Position numbers and translations under genes: made by a program. Shown here piece after piece: positions 37,790 to 60,221 of a stretch of 64,000 nt of DNA (within the stretch, counting starts at the first letter, position 1; each line of letters starts with the position of its first letter). This stretch comes from an uncultured Bacilli bacterium. Its GTDB lineage: Bacteria; Bacillota_I; Bacilli_A; RF39; UBA660. The DNA lies in assembly GCA_947629035.1 (NCBI GenBank), contig CANRCE010000001.1, positions 23,037-87,036 of the forward strand, written 5' to 3'. Below the pieces are notes generated by a model. It was not told the DNA's origin. It worked only from the letters and a program-made list of their open reading frames with translations, and made no database searches.

Positions 37790-39337
37790 CTATAACATTA
37801 CATTAGCATTTATACCAAGTGGAATACCAATGATATAAAAGGCTAAAATTATAAGTAACCATAAGATGCTAAAGGCAATAGTATAAGGTACCATTAAAGA
37901 TATAGCATCAGTTATAGTTATAACATCATTTTTTCTTTTATCGTATATTTGTAAAAATCCTATTAGAATAACAAAATAAACAAATAGGGGAGTTATTCCT
38001 TTAGTGGCAGAATCGGCTGCTCTAAATACGGCTTGGGTAAATTCTGGAGTTAAGGAACTTTGCATGAACATTGGAATGATTACTGGTGATAAGATTGCCC
38101 ATTTTGTTGAAGCTACAGGCACAAATATATTGCATATAAGGACTATTAAGAAAGTTACTAATACTAATAATAATCCTGTTAATTCTAAATTACTTAATAA
38201 TTCAGATAATGATGCTATTATAAAGATTCCAATATTTGTTTGTTTAAATATTAAGCAAAATTGAGCTGCAAAGAAAATTAATACTAATATTGAAGCTACA
38301 TCTTTTAAATAATAGCTCATACTGTCTACTAAATCACGATTATTTTTAATGCTTTTGGTTCTTAGGCCATAAATAAATCCTGATACAATTAAAAGTCCAC
38401 TAAAAATAGCTACTACTCCTTGACTAAAATAAGAATTTGCTCCAAATAATTGATCAACATAACTTTTATCTTTTAAATATAGAAGTAGTCCTGAAAATGG
38501 TAGTCCTGGTGTTATACAATATATTAATATAAGAATAATTACTAATGATACTAATAATGATAATACTACGCCTTTTTTCTCTTTTATGGTAAGTTCTTGT
38601 TCATTATTTGGTTCTTCGGCATCAAAAGTGTATCTTCCTAATTTTGGTATTATGTACTTTTCCGTAATAATCATTCCTAAATAAGCAATCAAAAGAGTAC
38701 TAATTATCATAAAAAATATGTTTCCTTGTAATGATACTTCATAACTCTTATCTAATATTGATGTTGCACTTTTAGTATATGAAATTAAACTTCCATCTAA
38801 ACCATTTGTAATAAGACCTGCTCCATAGCCAAAAGTAATTCCTGCAAAAGCTGCACATATTCCTGCAGAGGGATGTCGTCCTAAATTCATAAAAAGAATG
38901 GCTGCAAGTGGTATTAAAATTACATATCCTACTTCATAAAACATTGAAGATATAACACCAACTAGTACAACTAAAAAGGTTAAAGTTTTTTTGGAAACTT
39001 TAGATTTAATCATTTTAAATAGAGCATTTAAAAATCCTGACTTATAAGCAACTCCAACTCCCAATAAACCTATTATTAATGTTCCAAGTGGAGCAAAATT
39101 CAATAGGTTAGAAAGCATATTACTTATTAAGTATTGTAGTCCTGTTCTATTAAATAAATTGGTAATTGTTACTATTTGAGTTTCTAAATCACCTGTTATG
39201 GCGTTCACACTATAGTAGCTTGCTTCTAAATGAAGAATGCTACCAATACTACTTATTATCATTATAATAAGTGTCAAAATTAAAAATACTAATGCAGGAT
39301 GCAACCTTACATGTTGTTTATTTTTCTTCATCATCAA
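37790..39337 (-). CDS. AbgT-family transporter (p-aminobenzoyl-glutamate/antimetabolite transporter family)
   Basis: 515 aa. RLHPALVFLILTL..., FAPLGTLIIGLLGVGVAYKSGF, GRHPSAGICAAFAGITFGYGAGL blocks typical of AbgT/MtrF. Confidence 0.7.
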   Translation of the reverse strand: MMMKKNKQHVRLHPALVFLILTLIIMIISSIGSILHLEASYYSVNAITGDLETQIVTITNLFNRTGLQYLISNMLSNLLNFAPLGTLIIGLLGVGVAYKSGFLNALFKMIKSKVSKKTLTFLVVLVGVISSMFYEVGYVILIPLAAILFMNLGRHPSAGICAAFAGITFGYGAGLITNGLDGSLISYTKSATSILDKSYEVSLQGNIFFMIISTLLIAYLGMIITEKYIIPKLGRYTFDAEEPNNEQELTIKEKKGVVLSLLVSLVIILILIYCITPGLPFSGLLLYLKDKSYVDQLFGANSYFSQGVVAIFSGLLIVSGFIYGLRTKSIKNNRDLVDSMSYYLKDVASILVLIFFAAQFCLIFKQTNIGIFIIASLSELLSNLELTGLLLVLVTFLIVLICNIFVPVASTKWAILSPVIIPMFMQSSLTPEFTQAVFRAADSATKGITPLFVYFVILIGFLQIYDKRKNDVITITDAISLMVPYTIAFSILWLLIILAFYIIGIPLGINANVML

Positions 39338-39512
39338 CCACCTTTTTTAGCTTTTTATTAAATTCAATTCGAGGTAACATAATCGTTCTATCACAATTTA
39401 AACATTTAATTTTTATATCTGTTCCTACTCTTGTTATTTGCCATCTGTTCGTTCCACAAGGATGGTCTTTTTTCATAATTACAATGCTACCTAATTTATA
39501 ATTTTTATCCAT
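39318..39512 (-). CDS. DUF951 (YyzM-like) small protein
   Basis: 64 aa. KLGSIV.MKKDHPCG.N.W.I.R.G.DIKIKC..C.R, the DUF951 pattern. Found next to ychF in Bacilli. Confidence 0.7.
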   Translation of the reverse strand: MDKNYKLGSIVIMKKDHPCGTNRWQITRVGTDIKIKCLNCDRTIMLPRIEFNKKLKKVVDDEEK

Positions 39513-39594
39513 AATATTCCTTTCTTTAAATTAATTATATCATATTTTTTTACTTTGTAGAATATAATAAGATGAAAATTTATATTTTATTAAC

Positions 39595-39623
39595 TTGACT
39601 TTAAACATCTTAACTAATATAAT
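39595..39623 (+). promoter_or_regulatory. Consensus sigma-A promoter (TTGACT-17-TATAAT) for rnpA-yidC-jag
   Basis: TTGACT at 39595-39600, 17-nt spacer, TATAAT at 39618-39623, about 27 nt upstream of the rnpA start. Confidence 0.6.
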
Positions 39624-39649
39624 ATGTTTTATATAAGGGATGTGGATTA

Positions 39650-39988
39650 ATGAAAAAAGAGAGAATAATTAGAAAGGGTCTTGAATTTACAGATATTATA
39701 AATAATGGTAAATATGTAAGTAATGCTTTTTATTCAATTTATTATATAAACAAAAAAGAAACTCTTAATAGATTTGGTATTTCTGTTCCTAAAAAAATCG
39801 GACATGCCGTAGTAAGAAATAAAATTAAGAGACAATTAAAAAGTATTATTAATAGCGATAAAAATAGTATACAAAACGACTTTGATTATGTTATAATAGT
39901 TAGGAAAGGTTTATTAGATTTAAATTATTTTGATCGTCAACAAAATTTTTTTAAACTAATGAAAAAAATAGGTGATGCTAATGAATAA
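39650..39988 (+). CDS. rnpA: Ribonuclease P protein component
   Basis: 112 aa. RL.....F..V...G..VSN.F; GISVPKKIGHAVVRNKIKRQLK RNR-motif region. Confidence 0.85.
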   Translation: MKKERIIRKGLEFTDIINNGKYVSNAFYSIYYINKKETLNRFGISVPKKIGHAVVRNKIKRQLKSIINSDKNSIQNDFDYVIIVRKGLLDLNYFDRQQNFFKLMKKIGDANE

Positions 39989-40880
39989 GAAAAAAATAGG
40001 TATATTAATGATTTGTTTATTGTTATTATCTGGTTGTACTAAAACTTTAAAAGATAGTGATAATAAGATTGTAAAAAATGAAATAACTGGTCAAAATTTA
40101 ACAGAAAATGTTGTATGTAGACCTACGAATGAAGAAGTTTTAAAATTGTATGAAGATAATAAAGTTGATTTATCTAAATTACCAGAATGTGAAGATTTTA
40201 CTCCAATTACTACTTATGAAAGTATTTGGACAAGTTTCTTTGTAAAACCATTAGCTTGGGTAATTATTAAAATTGGTAATTTGGTTAATAGTTATGGCTT
40301 ATCTATAATTATTACTTGCTTACTTATTAGGTTAGCTTTATTTCCTGTTACTAAAAAAACAGCAATACAATCGGAAAATATGCAAAAAGCTCAACCTGAA
40401 CTTCAAAGATTAGAAAAGAAATATGCTAATAAGACTTCTCAAGAAGATCAAACTAAAAAAGCTCAAGAAATGATGATGATTTATCAAAAGTATCATATTA
40501 ATCCTATTTCTGGTTGTTTACTAGCTTTTGTACAAATTCCTTTATTATTTGCTTTTTTAGAAGCAATCAATAGAACACCTGCGATATTTGAAAATAAGTT
40601 CTTATCTCTTCATATGGGAACAACAATAACAGTTGGTATTTCAAATGGTAACTGGTGGTATTTACTTTTATTAGTTTTGATAATGGCTACGACTTATATT
40701 TCGTTTAGAAAGACTTTAAAAGATCAATCAGCTGCTGCTCAACAGATGAAATTTACAATTTATTTTATGCTTGTAATTATTTTAATTGCTTCATTTAGTT
40801 TACCTGTTGCTTTAGGTATTTATTGGATAACATCTAGTTTGTTTACAATATTACAAAATTTATGGGTTGAAAGAAGGTAA
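39981..40880 (+). CDS. yidC: YidC/Oxa1-family membrane protein insertase (lipoprotein type, SpoIIIJ/YqjG-like)
   Basis: Lipobox LLLLSGC; 60-kDa-IMP conserved core. Possible starts are GTG 39972, ATG 39975 and ATG 39981; overlaps the rnpA stop. Confidence 0.85.
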   Translation: MNKKKIGILMICLLLLSGCTKTLKDSDNKIVKNEITGQNLTENVVCRPTNEEVLKLYEDNKVDLSKLPECEDFTPITTYESIWTSFFVKPLAWVIIKIGNLVNSYGLSIIITCLLIRLALFPVTKKTAIQSENMQKAQPELQRLEKKYANKTSQEDQTKKAQEMMMIYQKYHINPISGCLLAFVQIPLLFAFLEAINRTPAIFENKFLSLHMGTTITVGISNGNWWYLLLLVLIMATTYISFRKTLKDQSAAAQQMKFTIYFMLVIILIASFSLPVALGIYWITSSLFTILQNLWVERR

Positions 40881-41493
40881 TATGATGAAGAAAAATTATT
40901 ATGAGGCTAAAAGTTTAGATGATGCTAAAAGTAAAGCTTTAGAGGAACTTAATTTAAATGAAGAAGATGTTATTATAAACATTGTCGAAGAAAAAAATTC
41001 TTTGTTAAAGAAAAATGTAAAAATTGAAGTTATAACTATTAATGATATTATTAATTATTTAAAAGAAGTTATTAATGATATTATGAAACTTATGGGTGTA
41101 GAAGTTAATCTTGAAGTAAGAAGAAGAGATAATAATATTTCTATAAAGCTTTTTTCTAATAATAATGCTATCTTAATTGGTAAAAATGGAAGAACTATAT
41201 CAGCATTACAGTTATTATTAAGACAGATGGTTAATAATCAAACCAAAAATCATGTTTCAATTGTTTTAGATGTAGAAAATTATAAAGAAAAAAAGATGAA
41301 AAATATCGAATATTTAGCTAAAAAAATTGCTAGGGAAGTTGCTAAAAGTAAAGTAGAGGTAAAATTAGATAGTATGAATTCTTATGAAAGAAGAATTGTT
41401 CATAGCATACTTTCTGATAATAAATATGTCTATACAGAGAGTGTAGGGGAAGAGCCTAATCGTTGTGTGGTAATAAAACCAAAAGAAGATTAA
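40867..41493 (+). CDS. jag: Jag/KhpB RNA-binding protein (KH + R3H domains)
   Basis: 208 aa. R3H motif (MNSYERRIVHSILSD). Follows yidC as in the conserved rnpA-yidC-jag unit. Confidence 0.8.
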   Translation: MKEGNMMKKNYYEAKSLDDAKSKALEELNLNEEDVIINIVEEKNSLLKKNVKIEVITINDIINYLKEVINDIMKLMGVEVNLEVRRRDNNISIKLFSNNNAILIGKNGRTISALQLLLRQMVNNQTKNHVSIVLDVENYKEKKMKNIEYLAKKIAREVAKSKVEVKLDSMNSYERRIVHSILSDNKYVYTESVGEEPNRCVVIKPKED

Positions 41494-41518
41494 GTTCTTT
41501 TTTTATGCGTAAAAAAAA

Positions 41519-41549
41519 CACTTAATTAATGTTATCTTTCAATTAAGTG
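41519..41549. terminator. Hairpin terminator (CACTTAATT-13nt-AATTAAGTG) between convergent jag and mreB
   Basis: Perfect 9-bp stem seen directly. The preceding A8 gives a U-tract for the - strand (mreB) transcript. Confidence 0.55.
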
Positions 41550-42521
41550 TAAATTATCTAATAATACTCCTGTTCCTTCAGCTACACAAGTAAGTGGACT
41601 TTCTGCTATGAATACAGGGACTTTTAATTCTTGAGATAATAATTCACTAAAGCCATCAATCATAGCTCCTCCTCCGGTTAGCACTATTCCTTTATCGATA
41701 ATGTCTGCTGATAGTTCTGGAGGGGTTTGTTCTAATATTCCTTTTACAGCATGAATTATGGTATAAATACTTTCTCTTAAAGCTTCTTCTACTTCATCAG
41801 AGGTTAATGTTATTGTATGGGGAAGTCCTGTAACTAAATCTCTTCCTCTTACTTCCATCTTTTCAGATTTTGAACCTGGATATACTGTTCCAATTGCTAT
41901 TTTAATTTCTTCAGCTGTTCGCTCTCCTACTAGTAATTTATATTTATCTTTTATATATTTTACAATATCATTATCAAATGTATTTCCAGCAATTCTAATG
42001 GAAGTACTGTTTACGATACCACCAAGAGATAAAATAGCTATATCTGTCGTTCCTCCTCCAATGTCTATTACCATATTACCACTTGGTTTTGATATATCCA
42101 TTCCTGCTCCAATTGAGGCTACTTTTGGTTCTTCTTCAAGAAAGACTTTTTTAGCTCCTGTTCGTTCAGCTGCTTCTTTGATGGCATTTTTTTCTACTTG
42201 GGTTATGTTTGATGGGCAACAAATTAATATTCTTGGTCTTGATAAAAAATTCTTCCCATTTACTTTTTTTATGAAATAGTTTAACATCAATTCTGTTGTT
42301 TCAAAATCGGCAATTACTCCATCTTTCATAGGTTTTATAGCTTTTACTTTTCCTGGTGTTCTTCCTAACATTTCATGAGCTTCGATACCTACGGCTAATG
42401 GTTTTTTAGTTTCACTATCAATTGCTACAACGCTTGGCTCATTTAAAACTATGCCTTGTCCTTTTATATATATTAATACATTTGCTGTTCCTAAATCTAT
42501 TCCAATATCTTTGTTAAACAT
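41532..42521 (-). CDS. mreB: Rod-shape-determining actin homolog MreB/Mbl
   Basis: 329 aa. MFNKDIGIDLGTANVLIY.KG.GIVLNEPSVVAI, DIGGGTTDIA phosphate-2 motif. Adjacent to spoIIID as mbl is in B. subtilis. Confidence 0.9.
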   Translation of the reverse strand: MFNKDIGIDLGTANVLIYIKGQGIVLNEPSVVAIDSETKKPLAVGIEAHEMLGRTPGKVKAIKPMKDGVIADFETTELMLNYFIKKVNGKNFLSRPRILICCPSNITQVEKNAIKEAAERTGAKKVFLEEEPKVASIGAGMDISKPSGNMVIDIGGGTTDIAILSLGGIVNSTSIRIAGNTFDNDIVKYIKDKYKLLVGERTAEEIKIAIGTVYPGSKSEKMEVRGRDLVTGLPHTITLTSDEVEEALRESIYTIIHAVKGILEQTPPELSADIIDKGIVLTGGGAMIDGFSELLSQELKVPVFIAESPLTCVAEGTGVLLDNLHLIER

Positions 42522-48833: not shown

Positions 48834-50378
48834 TTATTTTTCAATTTTTATAATTATTTGATATTCTTTTTCTAAATCCATTTCATTTATAGTTATCGTT
48901 TTGCCACTATTTTCTATTTTAGATACAACCTCACGAATTGATGATATAGCATCATTTAAGTTATTATTTGACTGACCATTACTGATTGGTTCAACTGGTG
49001 GTTGCAATTCTGGTGACACTACTGGTGTAGGTTCAATATTTATTGCTGATAATGGCTCTTCTTTAGGTGATGGCATTGTTGGTGCTTGTGGCGTGATTGG
49101 ATTTGTAATATCAATTATTGTAGGTTCTTGTGTGTTTGTTGACATGTTTGGCATGCTGTTATTTTGTGCCATTATAGGTGGTGTCATTGTTGGTTCAATA
49201 TTATTAGATTGTGATGAAAAACTTGGAATTGGACTTGGAACTACTGGCTCAACTGGGATATTTGGCAGTACTATTTGAGCATTAGGTATTGGTCCTTGTT
49301 GAGTTGGTGTTTGACTAGCTCCAATTGGTTCAGGCATCACAGGCATTTGAATTGTATTTACATTTGGTTGGGGTGTTGACTGTGGCATAGGATTTTGTAA
49401 TGAAGCTTCATTATTTTGATTCATTCCTGGTGCTTGTGGTACTGTAAAATTCATATTTACTGTTTCATTTTCAAGTGGCTTATTAAAATTTGAAGCCTCA
49501 CTTGGTTGTGCTACTGGTTGATTTACCATATTATTTTGTTCTTGATTCATATCTATTATCTCCTCTTTTCTATCTTCAATTAAAGGTTCAACATCATTAA
49601 AGACATTTGAATTTGTATCATATATATTTAAATCATTTAAAGCAAATTTTACGTTATTATTTATTGAATTATTAGTTAATGAAATAGCTTCATTTAAATC
49701 ATTTAGATTAACTGTATTATTATTTGTTCCTTCAAGTGGATCTATTATTGTTTCTTGATTACTATCTTGATTTTGTTTTAACAAAGACTTAATATAGTCT
49801 TCAGTTGCTTTTACATTTAATTTTTGAGATATTATTTTATTTAATACTTCTTTTTGTTTATTTTCATCAGATAGTTGCAATAAGCTTCTTGCATGTCGTT
49901 CTGATATTTCATTATTCATTAGTGAATCCTGAATTTCTTTAGGTAATTTTAATAATCTTAATTTGTTGGCAATACTACTTTGTGATTTGCCTATTTTTTG
50001 TGATAAATCTTCCTGTTTTAAATTTCCTAAATTCATTAAATTTTGATATGCCCTAGCTTCTTCGATAGCATTTAAATCTTTTCGTTCGAGATTTTCTATT
50101 AATGCTAATGAAGCACTAGTAATATCATCTACTTCATTTACTATTACTGGTACTTCTTTTAATCCTGCAATAATAGCAGCTTTATATCTTCTTTCTCCTG
50201 CAATGATTTCATATTTATCATTAATTTTTCTAACGGCTAGTGGTTGAATTATTCCATAATTTTTTATCGAAGTAGCTAATTCATTTAATTCTTCTTCATT
50301 AAATATCATCCTTGGTTGATATCTATTTGGTATTATGTTTTCAATTTTTATATATTCAATTTGCTTTGCCGTATTCAT
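48834..50378 (-). CDS. ParB/Noc-like DNA-binding protein with long P/Q/N-rich low-complexity C-terminal extension
   Basis: 514 aa. ParB N-domain (IIPNRYQPRMIFNEEELNEL..SIKNYGIIQPLAVRK...YEIIAGERRYKAA) and HTH (LSQKIGKSQSSIANKLRLLKLP), then ~250 aa of P/Q/N/T-rich sequence and a ~50-aa C-terminal segment. No parA/soj gene in the window. Confidence 0.75.
   Translation of the reverse strand: MNTAKQIEYIKIENIIPNRYQPRMIFNEEELNELATSIKNYGIIQPLAVRKINDKYEIIAGERRYKAAIIAGLKEVPVIVNEVDDITSASLALIENLERKDLNAIEEARAYQNLMNLGNLKQEDLSQKIGKSQSSIANKLRLLKLPKEIQDSLMNNEISERHARSLLQLSDENKQKEVLNKIISQKLNVKATEDYIKSLLKQNQDSNQETIIDPLEGTNNNTVNLNDLNEAISLTNNSINNNVKFALNDLNIYDTNSNVFNDVEPLIEDRKEEIIDMNQEQNNMVNQPVAQPSEASNFNKPLENETVNMNFTVPQAPGMNQNNEASLQNPMPQSTPQPNVNTIQMPVMPEPIGASQTPTQQGPIPNAQIVLPNIPVEPVVPSPIPSFSSQSNNIEPTMTPPIMAQNNSMPNMSTNTQEPTIIDITNPITPQAPTMPSPKEEPLSAINIEPTPVVSPELQPPVEPISNGQSNNNLNDAISSIREVVSKIENSGKTITINEMDLEKEYQIIIKIEK
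48986..49736 (-). repeat. Low-complexity (P/Q/N/T-rich) coding region within the ParB-like gene
   Basis: Compositionally biased translation (...PQAPGMNQNNEASLQNPMPQSTPQPNVNTIQMPVMPEP...). Confidence 0.6.
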
Positions 50379-51169: not shown

Positions 51170-53024
51170 TATAATACTTCCTTAAATATATTAATAATAT
51201 TGATATGTCTGCTGGATTTACACCACTTATTCTTAAAGCTTGAGCTATATTAAGAGGTCTTATTTTTTTTAATTTATCTCTTGCTTCGCTTGCTAAATTG
51301 GGAATTTTATCATAATCTATATCATTAGGTATTTGCTTTTCTTCATTTTTTAACATTTTTTGGGCTTCTCTTTCTACTTTAGTTATATAACCTGAATATT
51401 TTATTTGAATTTCTACTTCTTCGATTATATCATCAGTATATTTTAATTGTAGTTGATATTTATCTATTAAATTTTTTAAATTAATATTTGGATTTTTCAA
51501 ATATTCATATACTGAAATTCCAATTCGTTTTTTTTCACTATCTACAGTTATTTTGGTATTTTTTAACTCTGTAATTAATTTTTTTATATTTTCTTTTTTA
51601 ATTTGAAATTTTTGATATTGTTGTTCGTTTATTAATCCAACTTTATAACCATATTCTCTTAGTCTTAAATCAGCATTATCGTGGCGTAGTAAAAGACGAT
51701 ATTCTGCTCTAGAAGTTAGCATTCGATATGGCTCATTTGTTCCTTTGGTTACTAAATCATCAATTAATACACCAATGTAGGCTTCATTTCTTTTTAAAAT
51801 TAAAGGTTCTTTATTTTCTAAAGCCAAAGCTGCATTAATTCCTGCGATTAATCCTTGACATGCTGCCTCTTCATAGCCACTTGTTCCATTTATTTGACCT
51901 GCTGTATATAGATTTTTTATTATTTTATTTTCTAAAGTTGGCTTCATTTGTGTAGGATATATAGCATCATATTCAATGGCATAGGCATATTTTAATATTT
52001 TAGCATTTTCTAATCCTGGTAATGAATGTACCATTTTTTCTTGAATATTTTTAGGCATACTTGTTGAAAATCCTTGTAAATAAATATCATCATAGTATTT
52101 ACTTTCTGGTTCTAAAAATAATTGATGTTTTGGTTTATCAGAAAATCTAACAATTTTATCTTCGATAGATGGACAATATCTTGGTCCTACACCAGTTATA
52201 TCATTAAGTCCTCCATACATGCTTGATTTATTTAAATTATCTAAAATTATTTTTTTGGTTTCATCGGTCGTATATATTAGATAACATGGTTGTTGATTAT
52301 TTAGATCATAAGTGGCCTCTTCATCATGGGAAAAAGTATAATATTTGTTATCTCCATCTTCACGTTTTGCTTTACTAAAGTCTATAGTATCTCTTTTTAT
52401 TCTTGGTGGAGTACCTGTTTTTAATCTTAATATGTCAAGACCATATTTTTTTAAATTATCACTTAAATGAAGTGATGGTTTTTCATTATGTGGGCCACTT
52501 CTAGTACGAGTAGAACCTACTAAAATATCAGATTTTAGGTATGTTCCAGTAGTTAAAATTACAATATTACTAGTTATTTTTGTAAAATCATCTAAAATAA
52601 CACCTTTTACTTCTTTGTTTTCAACGATTAAATCTTCGACCATTGCTTCTTTTATTTCTAAATTTTTTTGATTCATTAATATTTCTTGCATAAATTTTGG
52701 ATAAGTTATCTTATCAGCTTGTGCTCTTAAAGATCTTACTGCTGGACCACTTGAACTGTTTAACATTTTCATCTGAAGTAAAGTAGCATCAGCAGCTTTT
52801 CCCATTTGACCTCCTAGAGCATCAATTTCTCTTACAATTATTCCTTTAGCAGATCCTCCAATTGAGGGATTGCATGGCATTGTTGCAATATTTGAAATTG
52901 ATGATGTTATTAGTAATGTTTTATGATTTTTTCTAGCTGAAGCTAGGGCTGCTTCACATCCTGCATGTCCTGCTCCAACGACAATTACTTCGTATTTATC
53001 TTTCACATTTATCACCTTTGTCAC
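51162..53024 (-). CDS. mnmG: tRNA uridine 5-carboxymethylaminomethyl modification enzyme MnmG (GidA)
   Basis: 620 aa. FAD-binding VIVVGAGHAGCEAALASAR. Confidence 0.95.
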   Translation of the reverse strand: MTKVINVKDKYEVIVVGAGHAGCEAALASARKNHKTLLITSSISNIATMPCNPSIGGSAKGIIVREIDALGGQMGKAADATLLQMKMLNSSSGPAVRSLRAQADKITYPKFMQEILMNQKNLEIKEAMVEDLIVENKEVKGVILDDFTKITSNIVILTTGTYLKSDILVGSTRTRSGPHNEKPSLHLSDNLKKYGLDILRLKTGTPPRIKRDTIDFSKAKREDGDNKYYTFSHDEEATYDLNNQQPCYLIYTTDETKKIILDNLNKSSMYGGLNDITGVGPRYCPSIEDKIVRFSDKPKHQLFLEPESKYYDDIYLQGFSTSMPKNIQEKMVHSLPGLENAKILKYAYAIEYDAIYPTQMKPTLENKIIKNLYTAGQINGTSGYEEAACQGLIAGINAALALENKEPLILKRNEAYIGVLIDDLVTKGTNEPYRMLTSRAEYRLLLRHDNADLRLREYGYKVGLINEQQYQKFQIKKENIKKLITELKNTKITVDSEKKRIGISVYEYLKNPNINLKNLIDKYQLQLKYTDDIIEEVEIQIKYSGYITKVEREAQKMLKNEEKQIPNDIDYDKIPNLASEARDKLKKIRPLNIAQALRISGVNPADISILLIYLRKYYNE

Positions 53025-53281
53025 TTTTTTTGAGTTACTGTTTTTTCATTTATAGCTTTATGTAATTCTAATTTTTTTTTGGCACTTTCGTTCATAAACT
53101 CTTCCTTGTATGGCATTTTGTTTATTTGAGTTAATATTATCATATAATAACTACTATCATCTTCGATATAACCAGCTTCATGATATGCAATATCCCAAGA
53201 ACCATATTTTCTTACAAATGGTTTTTCTTGCAATTTTTTATCAGTTACATTTTGATAATTTGAACTCATTTTTAAATCCAT
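53021..53281 (-). CDS. Small hypothetical protein inserted between mnmE and mnmG
   Basis: 86 aa. 10-nt gap after mnmE and a 4-nt overlap with the mnmG start, so an operon position. No motif recognised. Confidence 0.4.
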   Translation of the reverse strand: MDLKMSSNYQNVTDKKLQEKPFVRKYGSWDIAYHEAGYIEDDSSYYMIILTQINKMPYKEEFMNESAKKKLELHKAINEKTVTQKK

Positions 53282-53291
53282 AACTTACCTC

Positions 53292-54647
53292 CTACTTTCC
53301 TAAACAAAATCTTGAAAATAATTCATCAATTAATTCATCTGTATAAGTTTGTCCAATTATTTCACCAAGATGATTCCATGCTTCTTTTAATTCTAGCTCA
53401 ATCATGTCAATAGGACTATTATTATCAATATTTTCTTTTGCAGATTTTATATTTTCGTTAGCTTTTTTTAGTAATGATATACTTCTTGCATTTGATAGAT
53501 AAGTTAAATCTTGTGTTTCTATTTTATTTAAATTAAACATTCTTTTTATTTCTTCTAGTACTGCATCAATGCCAATATTATTTTTAATACTTATTTCTAT
53601 GACTTTTTCATTGATATTTAATTTTTTTTCTAAATCTATTTTATTGATAATGATAATGTGATTTTTATTTTTTATTAAATCTAGTAATTTTTTATCTTCA
53701 AAAGCCAATGGTTCATTGTTATTTAATAATAATAAAACTAAATCTGATTTTTTTATAATTTCTATACTTTTTTCTACGCCAATTTGTTCTACGATATTAT
53801 CAGTCTGTCTAATACCTGCCGTGTCTATTATATTTAAGATGATACCATCTAGTGATATTTTTCCCTCAACTATATCCCTGGTTGTGCCTGCAATATCAGT
53901 AACTATTGCTTTATCTTCTTCTAGTAGGGCATTTAAAAGACTACTTTTTCCAACGTTAGGTCTTCCAATAATACCAACTTTTATACCATCATTTATTAAT
54001 TTTCCTGTTTCTGATTTTTTTATAATATTTTCAAGTTCTTGGTGAATTTTTTCTATTTTAGGTTTTATTGTCTTGGTTGTTACGACTTCAATGTCTTCAT
54101 ATTCTGGATAATCAATGTTTACTTCAATATTGGTTATTATTTCTATTAATTTATTTCGAAGATTTTTTATTAAATCTGATACTTTCCCACTTAATTGATT
54201 TATGGAAGCAGCTCTAGAAATATCTGTTTTAGCATTTATTAAATTCATAATACCATCGGCTTCAACTAAATCAATTCTTCCGTTTAAAAATGCTCTTTTG
54301 GTAAATTCCCCAGGTTCTGCTAAACGACAACCATTAATTAGTAATAATTCTAAAACTTTATTGGTTGTGGCTATACCACCATGACAATTTATTTCTACAA
54401 TATCTTCTTTGGTAAATGTTTTTGGAGCTTTCATTAATGATACTAAAACTTCATCAATAACATTATCATTATCCACAATATGGCCGTAGTGTATTGTATG
54501 ACTTTTTTGTTGTTGTAAATTTTTTCCCTTAAAAATACTATTCACTATACTTATAGAATTACTTCCACTTACTCTAATTATAGAAATAGCTCCAACTCCC
54601 AAGGCTGTGGATATGGCTGCAATTGTATCATTCATAATTCTAAACAT
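53292..54647 (-). CDS. mnmE: tRNA modification GTPase MnmE (TrmE)
   Basis: 451 aa. G-domain GRPNVGKSSLLNAL, DTAGIR, C-terminal CLGK. Confidence 0.95.
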   Translation of the reverse strand: MFRIMNDTIAAISTALGVGAISIIRVSGSNSISIVNSIFKGKNLQQQKSHTIHYGHIVDNDNVIDEVLVSLMKAPKTFTKEDIVEINCHGGIATTNKVLELLLINGCRLAEPGEFTKRAFLNGRIDLVEADGIMNLINAKTDISRAASINQLSGKVSDLIKNLRNKLIEIITNIEVNIDYPEYEDIEVVTTKTIKPKIEKIHQELENIIKKSETGKLINDGIKVGIIGRPNVGKSSLLNALLEEDKAIVTDIAGTTRDIVEGKISLDGIILNIIDTAGIRQTDNIVEQIGVEKSIEIIKKSDLVLLLLNNNEPLAFEDKKLLDLIKNKNHIIIINKIDLEKKLNINEKVIEISIKNNIGIDAVLEEIKRMFNLNKIETQDLTYLSNARSISLLKKANENIKSAKENIDNNSPIDMIELELKEAWNHLGEIIGQTYTDELIDELFSRFCLGK

Positions 54648-54684
54648 TCCTTTCTTTTTTTATATTTTAGCATAGTTCAAGAAA

Positions 54685-54708
54685 AAAAACTACAAAAAAG
54701 TAGTTTTT
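54685..54708 (-). terminator. Hairpin (AAAAACTAC-a6-GTAGTTTTT) immediately downstream of the rpmH stop
   Basis: Perfect 9-bp stem seen directly. T-rich on both arms, so it can terminate in either direction. Confidence 0.5.
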
Positions 54709-54710
54709 AA

Positions 54711-54833
54711 TTAAGCTGATAATTTTTTTCGACCTTTAGCTCTTCTTTTATTTAAAACATTTCCTTTTATTCTAGAGAAAAAGCCATGTTTCTTTGCTTT
54801 TTTTCTTTTATTTGGTTGATAAGTCCTTTTCAT
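54711..54833 (-). CDS. rpmH: 50S ribosomal protein L34
   Basis: Hand-translated 40-aa [43 protein letters not shown], a canonical L34. Too short for the supplied ORF track. Confidence 0.9.
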
Positions 54834-54932
54834 TTCTAACACCTCCAAAGTTAAATGCTCTTATATTATATAAGGTAATTTTTATAATGTCAAGCTTTTT
54901 TTAAAATTTAGCTATCTTTTTTTCTTATTTTT

Positions 54933-54965: not shown

Positions 54966-56726
54966 ATGTTCAAAGAAATACTTGCAATTAGTAAAAATTT
55001 TGCTTTAGTTAAAATTGAGGGTCAGATTAATGATGATCTTTTGAATTATAATGTTGTATTTGAAGAAGATAATAAAAAAATATTAGGAGAAATTGAAGAG
55101 ATTAATGATGGACAAGCTCGTATTACGTTTTTAGGAGAATTTCATGATGGAAAATATTATGATGGTATTATTCGAAAACCTAGCTTAAATGCCAAAATTA
55201 GAATTATTAACGAAGATGAACTTAAAGAATTAGTAGGAGCTAATGATAATCGAAGTATGATTTTAGGATTATCACCATTATATAATGATTTTCCTATTCA
55301 TATAAATATTAATGAAATGTTTAGTAATCATAGTGCTATTTTTGGTAACACTGGTAGTGGTAAAACTTACGGTGTAGCACGTTTTGTTCAAAATTTATTT
55401 CATATTGATGATAAAATTCCTTTTAATAGCAATATATTTATATTCAATAATACAGATGAATATGACAATGCTTTTAATAATTTAAATACGATTAATCCTA
55501 ATTTTAATTATAAAATCTTTACTACTAATACTAATCAAACAACGATACCAATTATAAAGTTACCTCTATGGCTTTTTAGTGTTGATGATTTTGCTAATTT
55601 ATTAGATGTAACTGAATATTCTCAAATTATGGTTATTGAAAAAACATTAAGTTATGTATCTTTATTTGCAAGGAATGATGAAGAGTCTCATCGTTATAAA
55701 AATCATTTAATTGCTAAAGCAATAATTAATGTTATGTATACTAATCAAACATCTGCTAGAATTCGTGACCAAATATTTTCAATTTTAACTGATTGTCATA
55801 CACCAGAACTTAATTTAGATGTTGAAGTTCCAGGTGTTGGATATACTAGAGAATTTCGTAAATGTTTTGATATAGATAGTCAAGGAGAATTTGTTGAAAG
55901 AATACTTATAACTGGCTATATAGCTCAATTTGTGGATAATAATACTAAATGGAATGAAGATTATGTACCTTGTTATTTTACAATGGATGATTTAGAAGTT
56001 GCTATGAATTTTGCTTTAATTTCTGAAGGACTTTTGTTAAATGAAAAGACTTCTTCAGAAGCGACTGCTTTAAAAGTTAAACTTCATACATTAAATAATA
56101 GTTCTAGTCGAAAGTTTTTTGAATATGATCGATTTATTAATATAAATGAATTTATTTCTGATTTAATATTAATAAATGGTAATAAAAGAGCACAGATTAT
56201 TAATTTTGTACTAGAAGATATCGATGATAGATTTGCTAAAAATTTAGTAAAAATATATTCTAGAATACTTTTTAAATTTTCTAAATATTTACCAGATCGA
56301 GGAGCTATGCCTATTCACATTATGTTAGAAGAAGCCCACAGATATGTTCAAAAAGATAATGATCTAAATATTTTAGGATATAATATTTTTGAAAGAATAG
56401 CTAAAGAAGGTAGAAAATTTGGACTGGTATTAGATTTAATTACTCAAAGACCTACTGAATTATCAGAAACTGTTATATCTCAATGTAGTAATTTTTTGAT
56501 TTTTAAAATAAATCATCCAACTGATTTAGAATATATAAGAAAAATGGTTCCTAATATAAGTAATGATGTTATAGAAAAACAAAAATCTCTTCAATCTGGT
56601 ACATGTGTAGCTTTTGGAAAAATGATGAAAATCCCTATGATTGTTAAAATGCAGCTTCCTGATCCTGAACCTCATAGTTCAAATGCTTCAATCTACGATA
56701 AGTGGATGATTGAGTGGAAAAAATAA
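54966..56726 (+). CDS. HerA/FtsK-superfamily ATPase (DUF87 'HerA-like helicase' domain), stand-alone
   Basis: 586 aa. N-terminal HAS-barrel-like segment (ILGEIEEINDGQARITFLGEF). Walker A GNTGSGKTYGV. Walker B/DEAH-like IHIMLEEAHRYV. Conserved LITQRPTELSETVISQCSNFLIFKINHP block typical of HerA-type ATPases. No TM segments. Confidence 0.65.
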   Translation: MFKEILAISKNFALVKIEGQINDDLLNYNVVFEEDNKKILGEIEEINDGQARITFLGEFHDGKYYDGIIRKPSLNAKIRIINEDELKELVGANDNRSMILGLSPLYNDFPIHININEMFSNHSAIFGNTGSGKTYGVARFVQNLFHIDDKIPFNSNIFIFNNTDEYDNAFNNLNTINPNFNYKIFTTNTNQTTIPIIKLPLWLFSVDDFANLLDVTEYSQIMVIEKTLSYVSLFARNDEESHRYKNHLIAKAIINVMYTNQTSARIRDQIFSILTDCHTPELNLDVEVPGVGYTREFRKCFDIDSQGEFVERILITGYIAQFVDNNTKWNEDYVPCYFTMDDLEVAMNFALISEGLLLNEKTSSEATALKVKLHTLNNSSSRKFFEYDRFININEFISDLILINGNKRAQIINFVLEDIDDRFAKNLVKIYSRILFKFSKYLPDRGAMPIHIMLEEAHRYVQKDNDLNILGYNIFERIAKEGRKFGLVLDLITQRPTELSETVISQCSNFLIFKINHPTDLEYIRKMVPNISNDVIEKQKSLQSGTCVAFGKMMKIPMIVKMQLPDPEPHSSNASIYDKWMIEWKK

Positions 56727-59780: not shown

Positions 59781-60221
59781 ATGAAAAGTAATTATACAAT
59801 TAATGAGAATACTTATCTTATTTCACAAGAAGGACGTAAGAGATCAAAAACAAAAATAATTGAAGAAGAAGCAACTTTTTTTGTTAACAAGCAGTGTTTG
59901 GAAGTAATTGATGATAGTTGTACAAATTATGGTAGTAGTTTTATAGGACAAAAAGAAAATACTAAAAAATTATTGAATATAAATATAAAACCACCTATTG
60001 TTGTTGATAAAGTTAATACCTTAATTTTTTTTCCAACAGCAAGTCCTAAATCAACAGAATGTATATGGATATCATATAATAATTTAAAATCATATAAAAA
60101 GATGAATAAGATAACTCGTTTGACATTTAAAAATAATAAAATGTTTGATATTCCAGTTACTTATGAAATAATAGATAATCAAGTTACTAGATCAATAAAA
60201 TTAGAAAAAAAATGTCAATAA
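59781..60221 (+). CDS. comK: ComK-family competence transcription factor
   Basis: 146 aa. FFVNKQCLEVIDDSCTNYGSSFIGQKENT...IKPPIVVDKVNTLIFFPTASPKSTECIWISYNNL...ITRLTFKNNKMFDIPVTYEIIDNQVTRSIKL aligns block by block with B. subtilis ComK (CVFYVNMKPLQIVDRSCRFFGSSYAGRK...HKPPIMVDPSNQIFLFPTLSSTRPQCGWISH...TEVTFSNGKTMELPISYNSFENQVYRTAWL). Confidence 0.7.
   Translation: MKSNYTINENTYLISQEGRKRSKTKIIEEEATFFVNKQCLEVIDDSCTNYGSSFIGQKENTKKLLNINIKPPIVVDKVNTLIFFPTASPKSTECIWISYNNLKSYKKMNKITRLTFKNNKMFDIPVTYEIIDNQVTRSIKLEKKCQ

Follow-up and report, generated by a model that had tools for sequence, protein, structure and literature searches.

The window analysed here is a 64,000-nucleotide (nt) stretch of DNA from an uncultured gut Bacilli lineage, spore-former-like and with a GC content of 25.6%, in which rnpA, the gene for the RNase P protein, is separated from its usual neighbour rpmH, the gene for ribosomal protein L34. 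This adjacency is among the most conserved in bacteria and is often used as a landmark of the replication origin (oriC). In the window, rpmH is followed directly by mnmE, with a spacer of 63–78 nt and no rnpA in between. The rnpA gene lies 14.7 kb away on the opposite strand (+ vs −) in a block, rnpA-yidC-jag, which sits between a DUF951 gene and mbl and whose jag gene converges on mbl. An earlier note on this DNA had described a broken linkage, with the block relocated by ~13 kb and inverted. We confirm it as a real but ordinary rearrangement (Table 1).

Genes were identified with Pfam and NCBIfam models, and single-copy status was assessed by tblastn within the window. RnpA (112 residues) contains VVRNKIKRQLK (HAVVRNKIKRQLK in the translation), the conserved basic RNR motif that defines RnpA and contacts RNase P RNA. 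The 5′ end of yidC overlaps the 3′ end of rnpA; its open reading frame (ORF) encodes 302 residues, and public gene callers start it at 39981 (299 residues). The best full-length equivalog-type match of the product is the SpoIIIJ model, yet the score stays below its cut-off (165 vs 377 bits), and a lipobox, LLLLSGC, can be read near the N terminus of the translation. A protein 100% identical to Jag is present in public assemblies (P0001), as is a 447-residue protein 100% identical to MnmE (P0241). The block comprises three ORFs only, all of them housekeeping genes, which keep the rnpA-yidC-jag order and their overlapping or abutting frames. One copy each of rpmH, rnpA, yidC and jag was found. 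The search revealed no rpmH pseudogene near rnpA and no overlooked second rpmH, which the earlier note had named as a possible objection, and the 137-nt spacer between DUF951 and rnpA is too small for an L34 ORF.

Downstream of mnmE, the minus strand carries a small unannotated ORF, mnmG, rsmG, a Noc/ParB-like gene, spoIIR and further genes; to the right of rpmH, the plus strand carries a HerA/DUF87-like ATPase gene followed by dnaA, dnaN, comK, recF and gyrB. The cumulative GC skew reaches its minimum at ~54–56 kb, beside dnaA and dnaN, which places oriC at the divergence of rpmH and dnaA and makes the minus strand the leading strand to its left. Because the block lies on the plus strand, rnpA-yidC-jag runs head-on to replication, in line with the earlier note, which had it opposed to replication on the left arm. 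Of the 51 left-arm ORFs of at least 100 residues, 39 are co-directional with replication, and the block is among the 12 head-on ones.

Table 1. Features of the relocated block, its flanks and the donor site. Positions refer to the window; regulatory elements are predicted from sequence.
Feature	Position	Strand	Description
rnpA	39650-39988	+	112 aa; PF00825 E = 1.5e-25, 89.8 bits vs 22.3, residues 1-107; TIGR00188 equivalog 88.6 vs cut-off 38.35
yidC (spoIIIJ-type insertase)	39972-40880	+	PF02096 E = 3.6e-39, 134.8 bits vs 35; TIGR03592 143 vs cut-off 84
jag (khpB, eloR)	40885-41493	+	202 aa; Pfam Jag_N, KH and R3H; NF041568 Jag_EloR 168.6 bits vs cut-off 145
DUF951 gene	39318-39512	-	PF06107 E = 1.2e-27; left neighbour of the block; heads the string DUF951-abgT-ychF
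Left flank of block		-	DUF951, abgT (AbgT), ychF (YchF), all on this strand
Right flank of block	mbl 41532-42521	-	mbl, spoIIID, M23 peptidase, spoIID and others, all on this strand
rpmH (L34)	54711-54833	-	40 aa; PF00468 E = 1.2e-13, 51.2 bits vs 25; TIGR01030 52.7 vs cut-off 37.65
mnmE	53292-54647	-	Pfam TrmE_N, MnmE_helical, MMR_HSR1; likely true start, ATG at 54632
rnpA promoter (sigma-A-type)	39595-39600 (TTGACT), 39618-39623 (TATAAT)	+	Predicted; 17-nt spacer; 11/12 consensus positions
rnpA ribosome-binding site (RBS)	39636-39641	+	AAGGGA, read from the sequence
rpmH promoter	54865-54893	-	TTGACA-17-TATAAT; the other of the two promoter-pattern matches in the window; kept in the sister lineage
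DUF951 promoter	39561-39534	-	TCTACA-16-TGATATAAT; alignable to TTGTAA...TGnTATAAT, which precedes DUF951 in the relatives L101 and L145
Left breakpoint interval	39562-39594		Bounded by the -35 elements of two promoters, that of DUF951 (-) and that of rnpA; placed from the retained sides
Right breakpoint interval	41494-41510		Putative; bounded by the stop codon of jag and the T8 tail of the mbl terminator; placed by alignment with the sister lineage
mbl terminator	41510-41550 (hairpin 41519-41550)	-	12-bp hairpin overlapping the last mbl codons, then U8
Donor-site scar	54648-54710	-	rpmH terminator abuts the extended -10 promoter of mnmE

As relatives we used 80 GTDB species representatives retrieved with a profile of Jag homologues (Jag 50–74% identical), all metagenome-assembled genomes of uncultured gut Bacilli such as 'Clostridium sp. 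CAG:914', 'CAG:762' and 'Firmicutes bacterium CAG:321/CAG:582'. Wherever the contig reached far enough, rpmH lay directly upstream of rnpA (75 of 75 informative representatives). Likewise, of the 77 informative loci, 76 have mnmE-mnmG-rsmG after jag, 57 of them directly and 19 with an insertion of 0.3–6.2 kb; in the sole exception, L053 (7061–10730), jag is joined directly to rpiB-spoIID-M23-spoIIID-mbl. A contig from Logan with a Jag 76% identical to that of the window (P0006) also shows the canonical order. A 1.3-kb contig with 78% identity (L090) carries jag and then a nucleotidyltransferase-like gene on the same strand and is not classifiable. In a neighbour-joining tree of RnpA, YidC and Jag, the window and its sister lineage (L086) are grouped with 100% bootstrap support and cluster weakly (42–47%) with L017, L005 and L021. 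Given the canonical order in the relatives, the rearrangement is specific to the branch from which the window and L086 descend.

The boundary between jag and mnmE has changed repeatedly in this clade, with insertions in 19 of the 80 species (L005, L018, L029, L030, L036, L037, L040, L042, L045, L047–L050, L052, L054, L056, L060, L077 and L081). No recombinase was found in these insertions; the cargo examined encodes MscS, a beta-lactamase-like protein, ABC/FtsX, TetR, helix-turn-helix (HTH) and bPH proteins.

The new junctions recur in independent assemblies. Four separate ENA metagenome contigs of low coverage encode proteins identical to those of the window. The junction of DUF951 (−) and rnpA (+) is present on ENA contigs L001, L002, L003 and L084, and that of jag (+) with the following minus-strand gene on L002, L084 and L085; the ENA assemblies with the left, the right or both junctions are ERZ27249158, -180, -167 and -647, with a coverage of ~2.5x. 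A sister lineage sequenced by JGI in another project (Jag 80% and MnmE 78% identical) shows this order as well, on four contigs from four assemblies. One of these, Ga0139362_1000087 (154,930 bp), holds all three junctions: it reads gyrB-recF-comK-dnaN-dnaA-herA / rpmH-mnmE-mnmG-rsmG-parB-spoIIR-mntP-murA-lipase-rpmE-rpiB-DUF1146-spoIID-M23-spoIIID-mbl, and beyond mbl follow the inverted jag-yidC-rnpA and then DUF951-abgT-...-ychF. All three junction sequences align between the window and the sister lineage, with substitutions and indels, which indicates one event in their common ancestor. Being common to two species-level lineages, the arrangement is fixed and fairly old.

On one ENA contig of the same strain, sequenced at 2x coverage (L084, 586–819), RnpA is called as a truncated protein of 77 residues, and a gap separates it from yidC; rather than a pseudogene, this most likely reflects a sequencing or assembly error due to the low coverage.

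The relocated unit carries a predicted strong sigma-A-type promoter of its own. The TTGACT-17-TATAAT element is exactly as the earlier note had described it, with the −10 hexamer placed 26 nt upstream of the ATG, and the pattern TTGACW-N17-TATAAT occurs twice in 64 kb vs 0.12 times expected from shuffles. Between the window (TTGACT-17-TATAAT...AAGGGATGTGGA) and L086 (TTGACT-17-TATAAT...AAGGGAAGTGAA), the −35, the spacer length, the −10 and the RBS are kept, and the remaining spacer has diverged with indels. Overall, the promoter is conserved across four lineages. Two of them, L005 and L021, have the canonical order, namely rpmH, terminator, TTGACT-17-TATAAT-AAGGATGGAAGTGA and rnpA, and L005 is the closest GTDB representative by both Jag identity and concatenated distance. 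In L017, TTGACA-17-TATAAT lies upstream of rnpA on a contig that ends 103 nt upstream. These are 3 of the ~78 relatives scanned, strains with the window arrangement and sister contigs excluded; most canonical relatives have only a terminator/attenuator hairpin and an RBS between rpmH and rnpA, and no promoter.

Since L005 and L021 carry the promoter in the canonical order, it predates the move of the block. The earlier note was thus right that rnpA has its own promoter, independent of L34, but the promoter is not a product of the relocation. The simplest reading is that rnpA was transcriptionally uncoupled from L34 before the two genes were physically separated, and this prior uncoupling probably permitted the separation. 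In the window clade, co-transcription of rpmH and rnpA is physically impossible.

At the donor site, the rpmH terminator (~54672–54703) reads AAAAACUAC-U6-GUAGUUUUU followed by a U-run (CUAC...GUAG, then U8) and folds with −11.2 kcal/mol (z = −2.05). The extended −10 promoter of mnmE, TATGCTAAAAT, follows at ~54658–54668. The sister lineage (L180) has the same rpmH hairpin, then TGTGCTAAAAT and then mnmE. In canonical relatives, a conserved hairpin, CCAC-N4-6-GTGG-T6, follows rpmH, and TRTGNTAAAAT, an extended −10, precedes mnmE after jag. This comparison points to an excision of exactly the stretch between the rpmH terminator and the mnmE promoter.

At the recipient site, the right breakpoint interval contains TTCTTTTTTT, which also follows jag in several canonical relatives. 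The mbl terminator folds on the minus strand with −11.6 kcal/mol (z = −2.3), and an equivalent hairpin with a T-run follows mbl in L086 and L145. The U8 tract is present on the minus strand only, so the hairpin at 41519–41550 terminates mbl and not jag. Therefore, of the earlier statement that the block is flanked by a terminator and the spoIIID-mbl cluster, the neighbourhood with mbl stands, but the terminator is not that of the block. Scanning and folding revealed no canonical plus-strand terminator for jag, and a consensus terminator scan of 39.2–41.7 kb gave no hit on the plus or the minus strand, as the stems are AT-rich. The rpmH promoter, rpmH terminator, mnmE promoter, mbl terminator and DUF951 promoter all remain intact after the move. 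With these five neighbouring elements preserved, no flanking transcription unit was disrupted, which probably explains why a break in so conserved a linkage was tolerated and fixed.

A metagenome scan anchored on Mbl (92% identical) found mbl followed directly by DUF951 in L101 and L145; the L145 contig is long enough to show abgT next. In L117 and L154, mbl and DUF951 are ~1 kb apart. The 67-nt spacer of L145 consists of the mbl stop codon, a hairpin with a T-run, TTGTAA...TGATATAAT and an RBS before DUF951. The mbl terminator and DUF951 promoter of L145 and L101 are homologous to the elements that flank the block in the window. The adjacency of mbl and DUF951 in these relatives is the empty recipient site.

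Taken together, we consider it most likely (probability about 85%) that an autonomous promoter-rnpA-yidC-jag unit underwent inverted transposition once, in the ancestor of the window and its sister species. Before the event, the order in the orientation of the window would have been ychF-abgT-DUF951-mbl-spoIIID-...-rsmG-mnmG-mnmE-jag-yidC-rnpA-rpmH / herA-dnaA-dnaN, with everything from ychF through rpmH running in the direction of replication. In the subgroup containing the nearest canonical relative, rnpA-yidC-jag would already have been a self-contained transcription unit, owing its autonomy to the intrinsic terminator of rpmH, the consensus sigma-A promoter and RBS before rnpA, and the separate extended −10 of mnmE. 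In the common ancestor shared with the one sister species, this 1.9-kb unit would have left its place between the terminator of rpmH and the promoter of mnmE and, in reverse orientation, entered the gap between the terminator of mbl and the promoter of DUF951, 13 kb more distant from oriC.

The three breakpoints, rpmH/rnpA, jag/mnmE and mbl/DUF951, exclude a single inversion. Of the local excision and inversion near oriC that had been proposed for this locus, the local rearrangement is therefore upheld and the single excision-inversion is not. The route could have been cut-and-paste inverted transposition, two nested inversions sharing the mbl/DUF951 end, or duplication followed by loss.

Several observations weigh against a single inverted transposition. 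No repeat longer than 12 nt links the three breakpoints; the check for breakpoint-associated repeats proposed in the earlier note gave only AT-rich matches of 9–12 nt, as expected by chance in DNA of 25% GC. Nor was an integrase or transposase found near the block, which shows no mark of mobile-element-mediated transposition. No intermediate arrangement was seen among ~170 related loci. The gene upstream of DUF951 differs elsewhere: DUF951 homologues showed three different upstream contexts, with MscS/ParB in L094 and, in both L096 and L097, a SpoU methylase, indicating that this neighbourhood is plastic across the wider clade. The adjacency of mbl and DUF951 comes from four metagenome contigs of imprecise phylogenetic position. 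Finally, the weak bootstrap support (42–47%) for grouping the window clade with the promoter-bearing relatives means that the promoter could conceivably have been gained independently, although the shared RBS context would argue against this. All breakpoints lie in or beside the T-runs of terminators, which fits illegitimate recombination; T-runs are common in such AT-rich DNA, and their location carries little weight.

Base composition offers a weak indication of age. The third-position T−A skew of the block (+0.09) lies between that of the co-directional genes of the window (−0.04) and that of its other head-on genes (+0.16), and the same block in canonical relatives has −0.16 ± 0.13. These values fit, weakly, a partial re-equilibration after an old inversion, with the event preceding the split of the two lineages. 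The third-position GC skew was also considered as an inversion clock and was uninformative, as co-directional and head-on genes both lie at ~0.

An alternative is that a second promoter-rnpA-yidC-jag cassette, derived from an ectopic duplication or from uptake of DNA from a relative, was first established at mbl/DUF951 and the original was then deleted, with neither cut-and-paste nor inversion. Its outcome would be indistinguishable from that of inverted transposition; a redundant intermediate avoids a stage without the essential rnpA and yidC; and the clean donor junction, a terminator hairpin next to the mnmE promoter, is what would remain after a deletion spanning the unit from one T-rich end to the other. 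The presence of comK at 59781–60221 also favours it. However, no genome with two copies was seen among the ~170 related loci, the block proteins are no nearer to any foreign lineage than the flank proteins are, and promoter and RBS agree with those of the nearest canonical relative. Identities to the same relatives are similar for block and flank proteins (~65–75% for YidC, Jag and most flank proteins, ~50% for RnpA). On the basis of these alike per-gene profiles we rejected a foreign origin of the block, and, together with the promoter and RBS match, they leave a foreign source unsupported. We regard displacement by a second cassette as possible but unlikely; a duplication within the genome followed by loss may still have occurred.

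A late origin of the promoter, as the earlier note implied, by which an adaptation rescued the expression of a promoter-less rnpA-yidC-jag fragment after its relocation, seems improbable to us. Most canonical relatives do lack a promoter before rnpA, and the link of the window clade to those that carry one is weakly supported. Against this, L005 and L021, which retain the canonical order, have the TTGACT hexamer, the 17-nt spacing and the −10 at the homologous position, and their RBS context is similar. Moreover, the insertion site lies between the mbl terminator and a divergent promoter, and a promoter-less insert carrying two essential genes would have lacked expression there.

The new position might also have been selected and not neutral, since SpoIIIJ/YidC and Jag now converge on mbl-spoIIID-M23 (SpoIIQ-like)-spoIID. 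If so, a sporulation-essential insertase and the cell-elongation regulator Jag/EloR/KhpB would share one morphogenesis and sporulation neighbourhood; transcription passing the end of jag, which lacks a plus-strand terminator, would enter mbl in antisense and couple the expression of both units; and the dosage of the RNase P protein would be freed from ribosomal-protein control. We consider this joint reading, antisense coupling included, very improbable.

Finally, the window is apparently derived from a metagenome-assembled genome (identical proteins occur only in NCBI/ENA assemblies, the longest contig being 90 kb) and the ENA contigs sharing its junctions have a coverage of only ~2.5x, but a chimeric or mis-joined assembly at ~39.5, 41.5 and 54.7 kb hiding a canonical genome, which the earlier note had named as a possible refutation, has a negligible chance of being correct, as the junctions recur in four separate ENA assemblies and, in a diverged sister lineage, in four JGI assemblies from another project, the rpmH/mnmE junction also on the 155-kb JGI contig, and a shared assembly artefact cannot produce junctions that are homologous yet diverged between lineages.

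Several other features of the donor region deserve mention. L34 is 40 residues long in both the window and the sister lineage (L180, 9802–9924), 4 residues under the 44-position family model, and the segment that usually reads 'MxTKxGR' is shrunk to 'IKGN'. Between mnmE and mnmG, an 86-residue ORF (53021–53281, −) has no match in Pfam or NCBIfam, nor by tblastn in related loci. The corresponding gap in the sister lineage is 26 nt, and the ~270-bp segment with this ORF is specific to the window lineage; the ORF may not be a real gene. The Noc/ParB-like protein (514 residues; 48834–50378, −) matches the nucleoid-occlusion model TIGR04285 over its first ~240 residues with 300.6 bits vs a cut-off of 315; its last ~270 residues have no family match, and, unlike in the relative L094, no ParA/Soj gene is adjacent.

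Firmicutes normally have only a DnaA-box spacer between rpmH and dnaA. In the window, this place is occupied by the gene for a 586-residue HerA/DUF87-like ATPase (54966–56726, +; DUF87 E = 1.5e-18), for which the NCBIfam HerA models score far under their cut-offs. The sister lineage L180 has the gene in this place too, and it is the divergent neighbour of rpmH in 29 of the 80 GTDB relatives, with 71–82% identity, about the level of conservation of DnaA; more distant relatives lack it. A ComK-family gene (59781–60221, +; PF06338, E = 4.6e-37) lies between dnaN and recF, as it does in L180 (4432–4911), and is an unusual occupant of the dnaA-dnaN-recF-gyrB string. An Rfam scan of the whole 64-kb window returned nothing at the gathering score (no known riboswitch, leader, small RNA or rnpB), although several ribosomal-protein and tRNA-modification genes are present.

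The cluster rpmH-rnpA-(yidD)-yidC-jag-mnmE-mnmG-rsmG near dnaA-dnaN-recF-gyrB has been described as a 'highly preserved gene cluster' (PMC4285127). Its counterpart in Bacillus subtilis is rpmH-rnpA-spoIIIJ-jag-thdF-gidA-gidB. The window has the same genes in single copy near oriC, and rpmH, mnmE, mnmG, rsmG, dnaA, dnaN, recF and gyrB keep their relative order and orientation. In contrast, rnpA-yidC-jag lies 13 kb off, inverted and head-on, between DUF951 and mbl, and the HerA-like gene and comK are inserted between rpmH and dnaA and between dnaN and recF, respectively. In the Escherichia coli rpmH-rnpA operon, rnpA owes its expression to transcripts that start at the rpmH promoters and read through. 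Most relatives of the window resemble this arrangement, with rpmH, a terminator/attenuator hairpin, an RBS and rnpA and no intervening promoter, whereas rnpA in the window, L005 and L021 is preceded by a consensus promoter of its own, past the rpmH terminator.

According to a review of RNase P, rnpA is cotranscribed with rpmH or lies near it in most bacteria (PMC10941002). In Aquifex aeolicus and A. pyrophilus, rpmH-yidD-yidC lacks rnpA, which is replaced by the protein-only RNase P HARP (PMC10941002). The adjacency is broken there at the same boundary as in the window, but rnpA is absent in Aquifex, whereas in the window it is intact (TIGR00188 above cut-off, RNR motif present) and merely moved. 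A full-text literature search found no report of this relocation and returned nothing beyond general remarks that most bacteria conserve the cluster. The window is one more exception to a strong rule, unusually well resolved, and does not represent a novel type of system.

There is no sign of a new molecular function. For this small uncultured group of gut Bacilli, the arrangement provides a clean synapomorphy, and heuristics for annotation or origin finding that assume rnpA beside rpmH and dnaA would mislabel the clade. With the essential genes rnpA and yidC now head-on to replication, the clade lends itself naturally to testing ideas on essential genes in this orientation. More broadly, the locus illustrates a harmless way of losing a conserved linkage: the downstream genes first gain transcriptional independence through an internal terminator and promoter, and the whole unit can then move, with breakpoints falling between regulatory elements. 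This route is probably a general one for conserved linkages.

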